NCBI RefSeq assembly: GCF_044324875.1 | Contig: NZ_CP172185.1 | Length of the DNA stretch: 64,000 nt | From: Escherichia coli | Lineage (GTDB): Bacteria > Pseudomonadota > Gammaproteobacteria > Enterobacterales > Enterobacteriaceae | Direction: 5' to 3' (one strand) | In this document: one piece after another, positions 4,490 to 63,877 of the stretch | Layout: every line of letters begins with the position of its first letter | How positions within the stretch are numbered: position 1 is the first letter of the stretch | The notes under the pieces: generated by a model | Databases searched by the model: none | The model's input: the letters and a program-made list of their open reading frames with translations, nothing else | Told to the model about the DNA's origin: nothing | Made by a program: the position numbers and the translations under genes

Positions 4490-5094
4490 TCACTGATGCC
4501 GTTTGCGCAGGTTCTCAATCACCGTCGTTAAATCCAGCCCCTGATCCTGCAACAGCACCAGCAGGTGATACATCAAGTCAGATGCCTCGTTGGTCAGCTC
4601 AAAGCGGTCATGTACCGTTGCTGCCAGCGCAGTTTCCACCCCTTCTTCGCCCACTTTCTGCGCGATGCGTTTGGTGCCGCTGGCATACAGTTTGGCTGTG
4701 TAAGAGGTTTCCGGGTCGGCAGATTTACGTTCGGCGAGCAGTTGTTCCAGTTGATACAGGAACAGCCACTGGTGAGCGGTGTTGCCGAAGCAACTGCTGG
4801 TGCCTTTGTGGCAGGTCGGGCCGATGGGATTCGCCAGCACTAATAAAGTGTCGTTGTCGCAGTCCGACGCAATACTCACTACGTTGAGGAAATTACCCGA
4901 CGTTTCGCCTTTGGTCCACAGTCGCTGTTTAGTGCGCGAGAAGAAGGTAACTTTGCCACTTTCGATGGTTTTGTCCAGAGCTTCCGGGTTCATGTAGCCC
5001 AGCATTAACACTTCACCGGATACCGCGTGTTGCACAATCACCGGCATCAGTCCGTCGGTTTTTTCCCAGTCCAGTTCGCGACGTAGTTGTTCTG

Positions 5095-5101
<7 letters not shown>
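4490..5101 (-). CDS. hisI: bifunctional phosphoribosyl-AMP cyclohydrolase / phosphoribosyl-ATP pyrophosphatase
   Basis: 203-aa [27 protein letters not shown]...; last gene of the his operon. Confidence 0.93.
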
Positions 5102-7179
<2,078 letters not shown>

Positions 7180-11523: not shown

Positions 11524-11571
11524 TTTCTTATTCCTCTTTAAACCTGTCTGAACCGTTATCAACCGCGCAAT

Positions 11572-11606
11572 AAAAAAGCCCCCGGAAGGTGATCTTCCGG
11601 GGGCTT
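11572..11606 (-). terminator. his attenuator terminator
   Basis: Minus strand reads gaaagcccccggaagatcaccttccgggggctttttt; a perfect GC hairpin plus T-run between hisL and hisG. Confidence 0.85.
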
Positions 11607-11668
11607 TCTCATGCGTTCATGCACCACTGGAAGATCTGAATGTCTTCCAGCACACATCGCCTGAAAGA

Positions 11669-11719
11669 CTAGTCAGGATGATGGTGATGATGGTGGTGTT
11701 TAAATTGAACGCGTGTCAT
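11669..11719 (-). CDS. hisL: his operon leader peptide
   Basis: Minus-strand ORF ATG ACA CGC GTT CAA TTT AAA CAC CAC CAT CAT CAC CAT CAT CCT GAC TAG = MTRVQFKHHHHHHHPD, with seven consecutive His codons. Confidence 0.95.
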   Translation of the reverse strand: MTRVQFKHHHHHHHPD

Positions 11720-37826: not shown

Positions 37827-38636
37827 ATGAATGATTCACTCAAGGCGCAATGCGTTGCCGAGTTTTTGGGCACCGGACTGTTCCTCTTTTTTGGCATTGG
37901 TTGTTTGTGCGCCCTGAAACTTGCCGGGGCAAGTCTGGGACTGTGGGAAATTTGTATCATTTGGGGGTTAGGGATTTCGCTTGCTGTTTACCTTACGGCA
38001 GGTATTTCCGGCGCTCATCTCAACCCGGCAGTTACCATTGCTCTGTGGCTGTTTGCCTCTTTCCCAGCCCGTAAAGTGCTGCCATTTTGTGTGGTGCAAT
38101 TAGCGGGTGCCTTTGGTGGTGCGGTTCTGGCATATTTTCTCTACAGCAGTTTGTTTACCGATTTTGAATCTGCTCACAATATGGTGCGTGGTAGTGCAGA
38201 AAGTTTACAACTCGCCAGTATCTTCAGTACTTATCCGGCAGCGGCGATTAATGTATGGCAAGCTGCGTTGGTCGAAGTGGTCATAACGTCCATGTTAATG
38301 GGGTTGATTATGGCGTTGACCGATGACGGTAATGGCGTACCCAAAGGACCGCTTGCGCCTTTACTTATTGGTATTCTGGTTGCTGTTATTGGTGCTTCTA
38401 CCGGACCATTAACCGGTTTTGCCATGAATCCAGCGCGTGATTTTGGACCTAAAATTTTCACCTGGCTTGCGGGTTGGGGGGAAATTGCGATGACTGGTGG
38501 ACGCAATATTCCTTATTTCATTGTACCCATTATTGCACCGATCATTGGCGCATGTGTTGGTGCGGCGATTTATCGCTATCTCATTGCAAAGAATTTACCT
38601 GTCAATAGTGTTACACCTAAAGAAATCAGCGAATAA
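37827..38636 (+). CDS. pduF: propanediol diffusion facilitator (MIP/aquaglyceroporin family)
   Basis: MNDSLKAQCVAEFLGTGLFLFFGIGC... with two NPA motifs (HLNPAVT and MNPARD). Confidence 0.88.
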   Translation: MNDSLKAQCVAEFLGTGLFLFFGIGCLCALKLAGASLGLWEICIIWGLGISLAVYLTAGISGAHLNPAVTIALWLFASFPARKVLPFCVVQLAGAFGGAVLAYFLYSSLFTDFESAHNMVRGSAESLQLASIFSTYPAAAINVWQAALVEVVITSMLMGLIMALTDDGNGVPKGPLAPLLIGILVAVIGASTGPLTGFAMNPARDFGPKIFTWLAGWGEIAMTGGRNIPYFIVPIIAPIIGACVGAAIYRYLIAKNLPVNSVTPKEISE

Positions 38637-38838
38637 CGAAATAATCTGGCAGCTATAAACGTTTATTTTTTTACTGTTTGTGATCTGCTTTCCGAACTTA
38701 TTAAAAAGTCTCCCGCTTCACGGAGGCTTTTGTTATTGTCCTTTGTGCTTCTCGTCAGTAAATCATCAGGGATGATGTGAAGATTAAATGTAAAACAATT
38801 GTTTTGCTATAACAATAAATTAACTGGGAGGTTTTATC

Positions 38839-39753
38839 ATGATTTCTGCGGCGACACTTAATTCAGAACTCATTAATAAAATCGCGCAGGATTTTGCGCA
38901 GGCGACCAGCCTTGCGGTTGTCGTGGTCAATATTCACGGCGATGAAATTTCCGAGCTGTTTAACTTCACTCCATTTTGTCAGATGATGCGGCAACACTCT
39001 CAGCTTAGCACTCGATGTCGCATGAGCGATCGTTGTGGGGGCCTGGAAGCCTCTAAATCCGATCAGCCTTGTATTTATCGCTGTCATGCCGGATTAACCG
39101 ATTTCTCTATTCCACTGGTAATCGCCGGACATTTAGTTGGTTTTGTATTGTGCGGGCAAGTTCGTCTGCGTAATGATGATGTCGATTTGGTCGATATTCT
39201 GAATGTCGATGATTGCTGGCAGGCAGATCCCGAATTACTTAATGAATTTCGCAAAGTCCCTGAGATGGATTACTCAAGAGTTATGGCCTCTGCTGATTTG
39301 TTGAAGTTGATTGTGGAAAATTGCCTCAAAAAACAACTCAATTTTGTTGTTATTAAAGAGAACAAATTTCAGTCAGATTCGGTGCGCCAGACTCGTGCGC
39401 CTAATCCCCACGACAATAAAATGAAAAAAGCTTTACGCTATATTGATGCGCATTTATCAGACGATTTGCGTCTGGAAGATGTCGCCTCGCACGTTTATCT
39501 AAGCCCTTATTATTTCAGCAAGTTATTTAAGAAATACCATGGGATTGGGTTTAATGCGTGGGTAAACCAACAACGGATGGCCAGCGCTCGTGAGTTACTG
39601 TGCCATAGTGACTGGAGCATCGCCAGCATTGCGCGTAATTTAGGTTTTTCGCAAACCAGTTATTTTTGCAAAGTTTTCCGTCAGACTTATCAGGTTACGC
39701 CGCAGGTGTATCGGCAGCAAGTGAATGAAAATGCGGCGATGGAAACGGTATAG
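38839..39753 (+). CDS. pocR: AraC-family regulator of pdu/cob genes
   Basis: 304-aa ORF with a C-terminal AraC helix-turn-helix; position after pduF. Confidence 0.85.
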   Translation: MISAATLNSELINKIAQDFAQATSLAVVVVNIHGDEISELFNFTPFCQMMRQHSQLSTRCRMSDRCGGLEASKSDQPCIYRCHAGLTDFSIPLVIAGHLVGFVLCGQVRLRNDDVDLVDILNVDDCWQADPELLNEFRKVPEMDYSRVMASADLLKLIVENCLKKQLNFVVIKENKFQSDSVRQTRAPNPHDNKMKKALRYIDAHLSDDLRLEDVASHVYLSPYYFSKLFKKYHGIGFNAWVNQQRMASARELLCHSDWSIASIARNLGFSQTSYFCKVFRQTYQVTPQVYRQQVNENAAMETV

Positions 39754-39869
39754 AGTAAATGCCAAAAAAAAGGAAGGTTTAAATAAACGCTGGAATGAAT
39801 AATTAACGTTATTTACGTGTTATGGGAAAAGTGAAATCAGCTCATAACATACGCTGACAGGTGTGGCAC

Positions 39870-40080
39870 ATTTGTGCCAGGGAAGAGGGTGAAAATCCCT
39901 CGCAGCCCCCGCTGCTGTAATGCTGACAAACCCGAAAATGCCACTGATCGCGAGATTGGGAAGGTCGGGTGAGGATGACGCTAAGCCAGAAGACCAGTCT
40001 GTCAGTCAATACCAACAACTTCGGTGGGAAGTGGGTTGCCCGGAAGCGTCCGGTAGAGTACTGGCGCGTCTTTATACCCC
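39870..40080 (+). promoter_or_regulatory. cobalamin (B12) riboswitch; boundaries approximate
   Basis: Contains the conserved riboswitch blocks ggtgaaaatccc, cgcagcccccgctgctgtaa, gccactg, gggaaggtcgg and the B12-box-like aagccagaagaccag. Confidence 0.65.
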
Positions 40081-40234
40081 TACCACCCTGAAAGGATCAG
40101 GGTATGGCGGCATCATTTAGTTCTTTCATCGCAGTGCCAACAGGCACCAGAGCTGCACTTAAGGTGTGGCAATCTTGTTTCATGGCTCATCAACCAGACC
40201 GCCATTACAGGAAACTAAGTGGAGGGCGAGGGAC

Positions 40235-40672
40235 ATGAAAACGATAAGACCCGAATCGATAGCTCTTTTTTGCCTCTTATCTGGAGATGCGGACCTGGCG
40301 AAACAATTGGCTGAAATATTGCCAATAACTTGTTTTGTTGGTGAGGACTGGCAGCAAGATTTCCAGCCTCTTGACGGTGGGCCTGTGCAATCGTTATCAG
40401 ATGTGTATGGCGATTATTCAGTGCTGCTATTGATAGCAGCTGAAAGCGAGATATCCGTACCAGAATGGCTCGCTCATTCTGAAGGAACGACGGTAATTGT
40501 GATTGCAGAACACAATGCCCGTTTGCTGACTGGTCCGGCTGGTGGGGCTGTAGCATTGATCCATTATCTGAATGAAATCTGTCATTCCAGAGAAACCGCT
40601 GTCAATGACGCATTTTGTCGTACGTTAACACGAGGAAGTCTGGCTATTCCGCAATGCCATCTTCTTTCGTAA
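40235..40672 (+). CDS. hypothetical protein downstream of the B12 riboswitch (possible cbi-deletion remnant); alternative start at 40166
   Basis: Open frame of 146-168 codons with protein-like composition immediately 3' of the riboswitch and 5' of cobU; no family recognised by eye. Confidence 0.3.
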   Translation: MKTIRPESIALFCLLSGDADLAKQLAEILPITCFVGEDWQQDFQPLDGGPVQSLSDVYGDYSVLLLIAAESEISVPEWLAHSEGTTVIVIAEHNARLLTGPAGGAVALIHYLNEICHSRETAVNDAFCRTLTRGSLAIPQCHLLS

Positions 40673-40805
40673 TGGATTGAGAATGCTGGATTTTTAATTA
40701 TATTACGCGCAGTATTAATCGCGTAAATGTTTTGCGGTCAGCAACGGTGGGGGATCCATTGTTCTGTTCAATGAATACCATCATACAAATGAATCAGGAG
40801 TCGGT

Positions 40806-41351
40806 ATGATGATTTTGGTGACGGGGGGCGCACGGAGCGGGAAGAGTCGCCACGCAGAGGCGCTTATTGGGGACTCTTCACAGGTTCTGTATATCGCCAC
40901 CTCGCAAATCCTTGATGATGAGATGGCTGCACGGATAGAACATCATCGGCAAGGCCGCCCGGCGCACTGGCGCACGGTGGAGCGCTGGCAACATCTTGAT
41001 GAATTAATTCATGCAGACATTAACCCGCATGAAGCTGTGTTGCTGGAATGCGTTACCACAATGGTGACTAATCTGTTGTTTGATTATGGCGGCGATAAAG
41101 ACCCTGATGAATGGGATTATCAGGCGATGGAACAGGCAATTAATGCTGAGATTCAGTTGTTGATTGCTGCCTGCCAACGTTGCCCCGCGAAGATTGTATT
41201 AGTGACTAACGAAGTGGGAATGGGGATTGTGCCGGAGAGTCGTCTGGCACGACATTTTCGTGATATTGCCGGGCGGGTAAATCAGCAGCTGGCCGCTGCG
41301 GCAAATGAAGTGTGGCTGGTGGTTTCGGGTATTGGAGTAAAAATCAAATGA
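40806..41351 (+). CDS. cobU: adenosylcobinamide kinase / adenosylcobinamide-phosphate guanylyltransferase
   Basis: 181-aa [26 protein letters not shown]... (P-loop). Confidence 0.92.
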
Positions 41352-42091
41352 GTAAATTATTTTGGGCGATGCTCTCTTTTATTACGCGTCTGCCTGTGCC
41401 GCGTCGCTGGTCCCAGGGACTGGATTTCGAGCATTATTCTCGCGGTATTATTACTTTTCCTTTAATTGGTTTATTGCTTGGCGCGATTAGCGGGCTGGTC
41501 TTCATGGCGTTGCAGGCATGGTTTGGCGTACCACTGGCGGCACTGTTTAGCGTACTTGTGCTGGCGCTTATGACCGGGGGATTCCACCTGGACGGCCTCG
41601 CCGATACTTGTGATGGCGTATTTTCTGCACGTAGCCGCGATCGCATGTTGGAAATCATGCGTGATAGCCGTTTAGGTACCCACGGCGGTCTGGCATTGAT
41701 TTTTGTTGTACTGGCAAAGATTTTGGTGTTAAGCGAGTTGGCTTTGCGTGGCGAACCGATCCTTGCATCGCTGGCGGCAGCATGCGCGGTCAGCCGCGGG
41801 ACTGCCGCATTATTGATGTATCGTCATCGTTATGCCCGGGAAGAAGGGCTTGGCAATGTGTTCATTGGCAAAATTGATGGGCGACAAACCTGCGTCACAC
41901 TCGGTTTAGCCGCTATTTTTGCTGCTGTATTATTGCCAGGTATGCATGGTGTGGCTGCTATGGTGGTGACGATGGTGGCGATTTTCATCCTCGGTCAGCT
42001 TCTCAAACGTACGCTGGGCGGGCAAACCGGCGATACGCTGGGAGCAGCCATAGAGCTTGGTGAACTGGTCTTCCTGCTGGCACTGCTATAA
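41348..42091 (+). CDS. cobS: cobalamin 5'-phosphate synthase
   Basis: [18 protein letters not shown]...; polytopic membrane protein. Confidence 0.9.
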
Positions 42092-42102
42092 AGAGACGTG
42101 AC

Positions 42103-43182
42103 ATGCAAACACTTGCCAATTTACTGAATACGATCCCTGCCATCGATCCTGCCGCTATGTCGCGTGCACAACGGCATATTGACGGGTTACTCAAACCTGT
42201 TGGTAGCCTGGGAAGGCTGGAGGCGCTTGGCGTACAACTGGCGGGAATGCCGGGGTTGAATGGCATACCGCATGTGGGCAAAAAAGCGGTACTGGTTATG
42301 TGTGCCGATCACGGCGTCTGGGAGGAAGGGGTCGCTATTTCCCCAAAAGAAGTCACAGCCATTCAGGCTGAAAATATGACCCGCGGAACAACCGGCGTGT
42401 GTGTGCTGGCAGCACAAGCGGGCGCTAACGTCCACGTAATTGATGTTGGTATTGATACTGCTGAGCCTATCCCCGGGCTTATCAACATGCGTGTCGCACG
42501 AGGTAGCGGCAATATTGCTTCAGCTCCGGCAATGAGTCGCCGTCAGGCTGAAACGTTGCTTTTGGACGTCATATGTTATACGCGGGATCTGGCAAAAAAC
42601 GGTGTCACGCTGTTTGGTGTAGGTGAATTGGGGATGGCAAACACGACACCGGCAGCGGCGATAGTGAGCACAATCACTGGCCGGGCTCCTGAAGAAGTGG
42701 TTGGGATTGGCGCAAACCTGCCGACAGATAAACTGGCTAATAAAATTGATGTTGTGCGACGGGCGATTACGTTGAATCAACCAAATCCGCAGGATGGCGT
42801 TGATGTCCTGGCAAAAGTGGGTGGATTTGATTTGGTCGGAATGGCTGCCGTGATGTTAGGCGCTGCGTCCTGCGGTTTACCGGTGTTGCTGGATGGATTT
42901 CTTTCTTATGCTGCTGCGCTCGCAGCCTGCCAGATGTCTCCTGCAATCAAACCGTATCTCATTCCTTCTCACCTGTCGGCAGAAAAAGGGGCGCGTATAG
43001 CGCTGTCACATTTGGGGCTGGAGCCTTATCTCAATATGGAGATGCGTTTAGGTGAGGGGAGTGGCGCAGCTCTGGCGATGCCCATCATCGAAGCTGCTTG
43101 TTCGATATACAACAACATGGGCGAACTTGCTGCCAGTAATATTGTTCTACCGGGGAATACGACTTCTGATTTGAACAGTTAA
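42103..43182 (+). CDS. cobT: nicotinate-nucleotide:dimethylbenzimidazole phosphoribosyltransferase
   Basis: 359-aa [43 protein letters not shown]... Confidence 0.92.
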
Positions 43183-44234: not shown

Positions 44235-44310
44235 TGGCTCCTCTGACTGGACTCGAACCAGTGACATACGGATTAACAGTCCGCCGTTCTACCGACTGAA
44301 CTACAGAGGA
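44235..44310 (-). tRNA. asnV: tRNA-Asn (GUU)
   Basis: 76-nt reverse complement of tcctctgtagttcagtcggtagaacggcggactGTTaatccgtatgtcactggttcgagtccagtcagaggagcca. Confidence 0.95.
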
Positions 44311-46642: not shown

Positions 46643-46718
46643 TGGCTCCTCTGACTGGACTCGAACCAGTGACATACGGATTAACAGTCCGCCGTTCTAC
46701 CGACTGAACTACAGAGGA
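46643..46718 (-). tRNA. asnU: tRNA-Asn (GUU)
   Basis: Identical 76-nt tRNA-Asn sequence, reverse strand. Confidence 0.95.
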
Positions 46719-48466: not shown

Positions 48467-48542
48467 TCCTCTGTAGTTCAGTCGGTAGAACGGCGGACTG
48501 TTAATCCGTATGTCACTGGTTCGAGTCCAGTCAGAGGAGCCA
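48467..48542 (+). tRNA. asnW: tRNA-Asn (GUU)
   Basis: tcctctgtagttcagtcggtagaacggcggactgttaatccgtatgtcactggttcgagtccagtcagaggagcca on the plus strand. Confidence 0.95.
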
Positions 48543-63801: not shown

Positions 63802-63877
63802 TGGCTCCTCTGACTGGACTCGAACCAGTGACATACGGATTAACAGTCCGCCGTTCTACCGACTGAACTACAGAGGA
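63802..63877 (-). tRNA. asnT: tRNA-Asn (GUU)
   Basis: Identical 76-nt tRNA-Asn sequence, reverse strand, upstream of yeeJ. Confidence 0.95.

Follow-up and report, generated by a model that had tools for sequence, protein, structure and literature searches.

We analysed a 64,000-nucleotide stretch of an Escherichia coli genome (contig NZ_CP172185.1), referred to here as the window, and in particular an open reading frame (ORF) that lies on its + strand between a cobalamin riboswitch aptamer and cobU. Homology identifies this ORF as the N-terminal third of cbiG (~125-135 codons) fused to DNA from the 3' end of cbiP. The cob operon around it is best explained as having collapsed by two deletions, one from cbiA' to 'cbiF and one from cbiG' to 'cbiP. 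Judged from comparisons across Escherichia, codons 1-105 of the remnant are under weak purifying selection, with about half of amino-acid changes removed. Our preferred reading, which we put forward tentatively, is that being translated is the main thing preserved. The product would then be a foldable, non-catalytic leftover domain that became dispensable once pdu was lost.

The CbiG equivalog model of NCBIfam (NF004463) matched ORF residues 1-118 to model positions 1-125 of 351 (E 9.9e-18). Of eighty enterobacterial loci fetched with cobU at the centre, about 50, Citrobacter and Salmonella included, had a gene matching the ORF at a distance of 8.1 kb on the upstream side. In tblastn searches the ORF was 40-44% identical to the first 112-119 codons of cbiG in these loci. 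The matching gene in a complete Salmonella locus (L087) is cbiG, with its CbiG_N, CbiG_mid and CbiG_C domains. A Pfam scan of the ORF gave no relevant match, only a chance match to Nup96 (E 0.12) on the 168-amino-acid (aa) form, and a profile search against the sequences of solved structures likewise returned only chance matches, with gp41 at E 0.13.

The window was mapped onto the Salmonella locus by blastn and nhmmer (Table 1). After position 40104 the DNA that can be demonstrated to come from cbiA amounts to its first 9 nt. Homology to cbiG ends at about codon 125-137 of the ORF and nhmmer matches to the 3' end of cbiP start at 40607-40698, with the alignments disagreeing on the register of the tail relative to the native cbiP frame. 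An earlier note on the window, made from its letters alone, had described the ORF with the correct frame, coordinates and sequence (168 or 145 aa) and had suggested a fused remnant at a cbi deletion scar downstream of the B12 riboswitch. The mapping bears this out. The scar is not the single cbiA-cbiP deletion junction that the note had presumed, as two deletions are involved. Nor did its two candidate sources hold. An origin from CbiA or from in-frame CbiP was rejected, the ORF protein aligning with CbiG from residue 1, and both NF004463 and tblastn lead to CbiG instead.

We propose that an ancestor of Escherichia suffered two old deletions in a Salmonella-type pdu-pocR-cob locus, in which cbiA-cbiF and the rest of cbiG-cbiP would have been lost. 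What was left would be a small operon comprising the cob promoter region, an adenosylcobalamin (AdoCbl) riboswitch, a 44-codon leader ORF, cbiG' and cobUST. Local alignments of the leader interior to the 5' end of cbiA or the 3' end of cbiF were no better than shuffled controls. The likeness between MAASFSSFIAVPTGT and MAARHHAFILAGTGS offers a bare suggestion as to the ancestry of the leader.

The ORF may start at a GTG at 40166, giving 168 aa, or at an in-frame ATG at 40235, giving 145 aa (MKTIRPESIALFCLLSGD...), and both forms end at 40672. The peptide LLTGPAGGAVALIHYLNEICHSR lies within the product. We take ATG 40235 as the start to use, for a predicted 145 codons, because it aligns with CbiG residue 1, is preceded by a Shine-Dalgarno (SD) sequence and is the start called by PGAP, and because the upstream extension is closed in other species. 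PGAP chose it in every fetched E. coli locus, and a GGAGG 9 nt 5' of the ATG occurs in all lineages but E. fergusonii, although it is shifted in E. albertii. The GTG was rejected as a start since the extension is confined to E. coli, with an in-frame stop 8-13 codons before the ATG in other species. An antisense ORF (40215-40556) was also rejected as the true gene, its third codon positions being the least variable. In the nearest E. coli genome (98% identical), 40235-40672 is annotated as a coding sequence (CDS) for a 'hypothetical protein' in the riboswitch-to-cobU interval.

The frame was open in all 15 loci read, which came from E. coli, E. albertii, E. marmotae, E. whittamii, Escherichia sp. 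E4736, E69 and E. fergusonii. When the substitutions inferred by parsimony were re-placed randomly on the tree of seven species sequences, the probability that all seven stayed open was 5e-4 for the ORF and 0.03 for the leader. The ORF frame is thus judged to be more than chance, as homologues of the same length occur across Escherichia and the all-open outcome arose in only 0.05% of simulations. Indels avoid the frames. The two frames together, 569 nt, contain one, of 3 nt, whereas the 221 nt of non-coding flanking DNA contain seven (1, 1, 1, 1, 5, 6 and 11 nt), a difference with P = 3e-7 by a Poisson test and P = 8e-4 by Fisher's.

Variable sites in the ORF were distributed over the codon positions as 54/44/77 (p = 2.6e-4). 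The signal sits in codons 1-105 (p = 3.6e-4), whilst codons 106-145 are neutral-like (p = 0.38) yet open. The ratio of non-synonymous to synonymous divergence (dN/dS, by NG86) was 0.27-0.62 for the ORF, compared with 0.72-0.78 in a permutation null that kept the mutation spectrum and forbade stops, and 0.03-0.17 for neighbouring genes such as cobUST. Maximum-likelihood (ML) omega was 0.43-0.71, or about 0.5 between species. Within E. coli the corresponding diversity ratio (piN/piS) was 0.34 for the ORF against 0.07-0.11 for its neighbours. The earlier note had made homologues with a conserved frame the test of its ORF, and these were found genus-wide, with dN/dS below the null and no frameshifts apart from rare disrupted alleles in E. 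coli. It had also held that identity to a truncated Cbi protein would make the ORF a pseudogene. The identity is confirmed, but it does not make the ORF a pseudogene, given a frame that across the genus is conserved, carries no frameshifts and is under weak purifying selection.

E. fergusonii provides the most distant comparison within the genus. Its pduF, pocR and ldtA, like the region as a whole, are just 75-80% identical to those of other Escherichia, a distance similar to that of Salmonella, with a proportion of synonymous differences (pS) of ~0.7, which is saturated. The ORF there retained 44-49% residue identity to the others, with 63-70 identical residues where the permutation null gave 45-48 and, over 300 permutations, never more than 60. 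The proportion of non-synonymous differences (pN) was 0.34 against a pS of 0.62, differences by codon position were 58/38/80, and the chance of meeting no stop codon was 0.002. In E. fergusonii the leader, of 49 codons, overlaps the ORF by 20 nt and stops at the native position of the cbiF stop, where 18 of 23 nt are identical to Salmonella. One allele with a 1-nt indel has a leader of 46 codons and a 10-nt overlap with the ORF. Between two E. fergusonii alleles the riboswitch showed 1 difference in 263 nt and the intergenic DNA after the ORF 21 in 226 nt (P = 7e-7), with a pS of 0.09-0.12 in the neighbouring genes. Differences in the ORF within E. fergusonii comprised 17 non-synonymous and 9 synonymous (ratio 0.55, range 0.55-0.65; p = 0.15). 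This is near the neutral null, so the within-species case does not settle whether the protein functions. The E. fergusonii locus (L094, L095 and L096, ~5600-6700) runs pdu-pocR-riboswitch-leader-ORF and then directly to ldtA. No cobUST was found at the locus before ldtA; elsewhere in the genome was not covered, as the CobU-based genome scan missed several Escherichia species.

Upstream of the ORF, the aptamer is free of indels, with 94.7% mean identity between Escherichia species, and the expression platform reaches 92.6%, compared with 85-86% for non-coding flanks, 82% for the ORF and 81% for the leader ORF. The ribosome-binding site (RBS) hairpin at 40086-40102 carries the SD in its loop, lies directly 5' of the former cbiA start and does not vary across the alignment. 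The ORF had been placed directly under the riboswitch in the earlier note. This needs correcting, since the platform ends at the cbiA start at 40104 and the 44-codon leader intervenes. Outside E. fergusonii, all 12 leader sequences read, from six lineages, were open over 44 codons and ended in the ATGA overlap. The leader had no codon periodicity (20/17/21 variable sites, p = 0.67) and no indels. The overlap of the leader stop with the ORF ATG suggests riboswitch-gated translational coupling.

In Salmonella, the RBS-hairpin element of the cob leader is said, from Andersson's and Breaker's work, to make cbiA translation B12-repressible. By the same scheme, binding of AdoCbl would close the RBS hairpin and block translation from the old cbiA start, so that at high AdoCbl both leader and cbiG' translation would be off. 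When B12 is scarce the leader would be translated and terminated at the ATGA, with reinitiation on cbiG'. Ribosome cover over the ~570 nt of message from switch to cobU could then give protection from polarity, and PocR and B12 control might be passed downstream to cobUST.

We also noted, at 40152-40180 inside the leader, a weak hairpin with a run of T residues behind it (T5-T8, with longer runs in other species), which might act as a translation-sensitive attenuator. We did not use it as a terminator, because its stem is 5 bp and its loop 9 nt, only one pair is compensatory, and sites of this kind are as numerous as shuffling predicts. Between pocR and the aptamer the window has 88 nt (39754-39841) and Salmonella ~320 nt (L087 2327-2648), so the upstream Salmonella cob leader and promoter region has no counterpart in the window. 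Within this interval the block 39809-39841 is invariant across Escherichia and may mark the location of the promoter.

The view that translation itself is preserved follows from the leader and the ORF tail, which are both open but unconstrained in sequence. Several points weigh against it. If the role were purely 'translation only', codons 1-105 would not be expected to show amino-acid constraint. The ORF stop lies 133 nt before cobU, so that coupling stops short of that gene, and the gap contains a promoter-like site. K-12-type strains keep cobUST without any of the upstream unit. A relay to cobUST cannot explain retention in E. fergusonii, because no cobUST follows there, and in E. albertii cobU is degraded and cobT gone, yet the leader and ORF frames are open. 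The strong SD of the ORF might allow initiation independent of the leader. A protein database, which biases towards intact alleles, was the source of three of the species sequences, and with the other four, picked free of this bias, the probability of all staying open was 0.017 (ORF) and 0.16 (leader). As to expression, a gene named 'CbiG' between pocR and cobU (LF82_328) had transcript values of 16.7 and 13.0 reads per kilobase per million (RPKM) in RNA-seq (PMC4509574). Orthology of this gene with the ORF is assumed from annotation and synteny. A full-text literature search found no study of the cbiG remnant beyond this LF82 table.

The best surviving alternative is that the ORF encodes a domesticated, stand-alone CbiG N-domain protein with a new, non-catalytic role, for example corrinoid or partner binding in cobinamide salvage or in supply of the Pdu cofactor. 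Such a protein would be found genus-wide and made only at low AdoCbl, via the riboswitch and the coupled, scar-derived leader ORF, and would serve Escherichia that use propanediol but are unable to make B12. Periodicity in codons 1-105 argues for it, as does the long-term constraint seen against E. fergusonii at saturated dS. E. fergusonii, which has no cobUST at the locus, and E. albertii, whose cobU is broken, moreover both keep the ORF and a strongly constrained riboswitch. The ORF also appears to co-occur with pdu, although the genome counts (644 with the unit and 641-642 with pduC, out of 5426) were matched as totals only. On the other side, constraint is weak by each measure (ML omega ~0.5, piN/piS 0.34 in E. 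coli and 0.55-0.65 in E. fergusonii), the motifs that define CbiG_N are gone, and frameshifted and truncated alleles circulate in E. coli. The CbiG N-domain has no known function even in real CbiG, and the likeness of the AlphaFold2 (AF2) model to 3eeq is partly built in because the AF2 alignment included real CbiG sequences. In that model residues 134-145 are disordered. On balance we consider a domesticated protein rather unlikely, though it keeps alive the other suggestion of the earlier note, a small B12-responsive protein.

A dead pseudogene fragment in neutral drift, whose openness reflects luck and the choice of sequences, is improbable. The case for it is that the ORF is a truncated third of an enzyme (145 against 351 aa) whose pathway is absent and whose family motifs are lost. 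Together with the leader it is, by nucleotide identity, the fastest-evolving segment of the locus, its dN/dS is 5-10 times that of its neighbours, and codons 106-145 fit the neutral null. The unit has been wholly or largely deleted from some 88% of E. coli genomes, and the K-12 fragment is flagged as a pseudogene. Drift would however have to account for a frame open in every lineage (including in the unbiased subset, at P = 0.017), for seven indels in the flanks and no frameshifting one in the frames, for the codon periodicity, and for E. fergusonii identity far above the permutation null with a chance of 0.002 of meeting no stop. A neutrally drifting fragment is thus unlikely on the grounds of open frames, indel exclusion, codon pattern and E. 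fergusonii identity taken together.

We give equally little credence to independent expression of the ORF, driven by its SD and perhaps by a promoter that has escaped recognition, with riboswitch and leader irrelevant. The conserved GGAGG at ideal spacing, the unconstrained amino-acid sequence of the leader and the 1-nt leader frameshift tolerated in one E. fergusonii allele would all fit. No promoter-like site was found on the + strand between the aptamer and the ORF, however, and the leader is open and in no case, the frameshifted allele included, ends short of the ORF start. The riboswitch and RBS hairpin are also far better conserved than other nearby sequence.

That the ORF is still a working CbiG, a cobalt-precorrin-5A hydrolase, is next to impossible despite the names 'cobalamin biosynthesis protein' and 'CbiG' in RefSeq and in the LF82 genome annotation, and as far as sequence goes it can be taken as already refuted. 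The NF004463 score was 64.4 bits against an equivalog cutoff of 546, with 125 of 351 model positions covered. PF11760 (CbiG_N) gave no match at E <= 10 for the ORF or for its E. albertii and E69 orthologues, whereas a 145-aa fragment of Salmonella CbiG scored 125.8 bits as control. CbiG_mid and the CobE-like CbiG_C are absent, the ORF ending at residue 145. Alignment to 26 real CbiG N-termini shows that 7 residues are deleted in the ORF family and that its GATG, DPAV..DE, SGH and PVITTATDVN blocks are gone. Those N-termini have 76 columns with a conservation of 95% or more, of which the ORF keeps 25, or 10 of 51 within the Pfam region. The substrate-making cbi genes are gone from the locus, including the cbiF/cbiH neighbourhood, with no cbi gene other than the ORF there and just scraps of cbiA, cbiF and cbiP between riboswitch and cobU. 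The product is thus predicted not to be a hydrolase, because the middle and C-terminal domains and the CbiG_N signature are lost.

Table 1. Features of the locus in the window and matches to the Salmonella cob operon.
Feature	Coordinates	Strand	Basis or remark
pduF	37827-38636		within the window
pocR, propanediol-responsive activator of pdu and cob	38839-39753	+	ORF list; PocR annotation in a 98%-identical E. coli locus (L001); upstream neighbour of the unit
Match: cob leader and first 9 nt of cbiA	39838-40112		82.8% identical to Salmonella
Cobalamin (AdoCbl) riboswitch aptamer	39842-40016	+	Rfam RF00174, 104.7 bits, full-length match
Expression platform including RBS hairpin CCCTGA-AAGGA-TCAGGG (40086-40102)	40017-40103	+	hairpin predicted by folding
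Leader ORF, 44 codons, opening at the old cbiA ATG	40104-40238	+	TGA (40236-40238) overlaps the ATG of the main ORF (ATGA)
Match: last 30-40 nt of cbiF (~80 nt in one match), then cbiG codons 1 to ~125-137	~40200-40609 (one match from 40152)		
Shine-Dalgarno GGAGG	40221-40225	+	9 nt upstream of ATG 40235; read from sequence
cbiG-derived part of the ORF, codons ~1-125, degenerate CbiG N-terminal alpha/beta domain	40235-40609	+	NF004463, tblastn, nhmmer
Match: last 160-200 nt of cbiP, then cobU start	~40607/40650-40810		
ORF tail and stop codon (40670-40672)	40610-40672	+	cbiG'/'cbiP junction at ~40609-40650, then cbiP 3'-end DNA
Spacer, 133 nt, of cbiP 3'-end origin	40673-40805	+	promoter-like site 40677-40704; five indels among seven species
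cobU (40806-41351), cobS (41348-42091), cobT (42103-43182)	40806-43182	+	nucleotide-loop assembly genes surviving from the cob operon

The distribution of the ORF family was determined by a word-indexed search over 5.8 billion proteins and an exhaustive HMMER search over 1.84 billion cluster representatives. In both, the family was restricted to Escherichia and Shigella, genuine CbiG proteins aside. Orthologues of 144-145 aa were found in E. coli, E. albertii, E. marmotae, E. whittamii, Escherichia sp. E4736 and a GTDB representative labelled E. coli E69, and a 156-aa form is general in E. fergusonii. The whole riboswitch-ORF unit was present in ~12% of complete E. coli genomes (644 of 5426). 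This matches, as a total and not genome by genome, the 641-642 of the 5426 that carry pduC. The ORF unit thus appears to travel with pdu in E. coli.

Most other E. coli genomes retain just the 3' piece from 40501 on, and some keep less. In K-12 this piece, the ~300 nt that precede cobU, adjoins IS5, and the NCBI pipeline marks it as an incomplete pseudogene. The K-12-type piece (L093 2256-2797) is 87-89% identical to the window and belongs to a 136-aa allele type that has lost 9 nt in frame and terminates 6 codons sooner. Such strains presumably have their cobU promoter in 40501-40805, where the promoter-like site of Table 1 is found. Independent deletion variants (L003, E. coli GF50, 4707-5341; hits H40, H41, H87 and H89) have a pduV remnant joined to ORF codon 34 or to its last 60 nt, and PGAP calls the pduV fusions as a 119-aa chimeric 'hypothetical protein'. 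In another E. coli allele (P0001, 188 aa) a one-base frame change, inferred from the protein, fuses the leader in frame to the main ORF (MAASFSS...RKLWRARGMKTIKPES...), and the region would still be translated throughout. In E. albertii (L084 6436-7900) the first ATG of cobU, taken here as its start, is CTG and cobU has internal deletions, with cobS intact. The dS of this cobS is ~1.2 to all other Escherichia, against 0.2-0.5 among the rest, which hints that foreign DNA has taken its place, the breakpoint falling within cobU.

The unit is a variant of known things, a cob-operon relic joined to a translational riboswitch with a leader ORF, and not a new kind of system. The existence of the ORF is not new either, because databases already name it. 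What is new here is the anatomy of the scar, the apparent coupled leader ORF, and the genus-wide upkeep of a translatable, weakly constrained remnant. Compared with CbiG of Salmonella, Citrobacter and Klebsiella (CbiG_N, CbiG_mid and CbiG_C), the ORF is the first third only and has no pathway context. The pseudogene fragment called 'cobalamin biosynthesis protein' in K-12 is the same DNA from 40501 on. There the riboswitch, leader and first ~89 codons are gone, whereas the unit in the window is intact and is a normal CDS in relatives. CobE of the aerobic pathway (PDB 2w6k, 2w6l) is a single CbiG-type domain as a separate protein, but it corresponds to the opposite end of CbiG (residues 227-330) and has nothing in common with the ORF.

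The control region has a counterpart in the Salmonella cob leader. Work in the 1990s by Richter-Dahlfors, Ravnum and Andersson, and by Nahvi et al. in 2004, reportedly established that the AdoCbl riboswitch and RBS hairpin control cbiA translation in Salmonella. The likeness extends to the third cbiA codon and includes the hairpin with the SD in its loop, but where the Salmonella switch controls cbiA, the same start codon here begins a scar ORF of 44 codons. Between pocR and the cbiA start there are 350 nt in the window and 597 nt in Salmonella. A comparable arrangement is found in Mycobacterium tuberculosis ppe2, where a B12 riboswitch acts as a translational OFF switch on an upstream ORF (uORF) and the downstream gene needs translation of that uORF, by termination-reinitiation, as shown experimentally (Kipkorir et al. 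2024, PMC11260477). The ATGA overlap is shared with the window, and dependence on the leader in the window is proposed by analogy from this layout. The ppe2 system differs in aptamer class and organism, and has a dedicated uORF as opposed to a deletion-scar leader.

All Escherichia lineages examined have the same collapsed Salmonella-type pdu-pocR-riboswitch-cbi'-cobUST locus, with cobUST lost or degraded in E. fergusonii and E. albertii. This bears on the 'loss and reacquisition' account of B12 synthesis in enteric bacteria, reportedly due to Lawrence and Roth in 1996, as the Escherichia cbi loss looks like internal deletion in a retained locus. The remnant is a small natural test case, in which a supposedly dead fragment has stayed open and weakly constrained over synonymous divergence from 0.3 to saturation. 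Either translation itself is selected, through polarity, coupling or riboswitch relay, or an enzyme fragment is re-used; were the latter true, the fragment would have been recruited to a new role after deletion of its pathway. In either case a 'cobalamin biosynthesis protein' or 'CbiG' label does not equate to B12-synthesis capacity in pdu-positive or adherent-invasive E. coli (AIEC).

Some minor observations were made elsewhere in the window. Rfam matched the enterobacterial small RNA STnc230 (74.8 bits) at 38695-38778 on the - strand, in the pduF-pocR gap and antisense to both genes. The his operon leader and four tRNA genes were found at 11570-11693, 44238-44310, 46646-46718, 48467-48539 and 63805-63877, which places the window in the his-cobUST-ldtA-nac region of the E. 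coli chromosome. The four tRNA genes have identical Rfam scores, and the one adjoining ldtA is tRNA-Asn in related E. coli. The allele carried by the window (39760-40810) is uncommon, with at least 99% identity in 2 of 5399 matching E. coli records, whilst most full-length matches are 95-98% identical.

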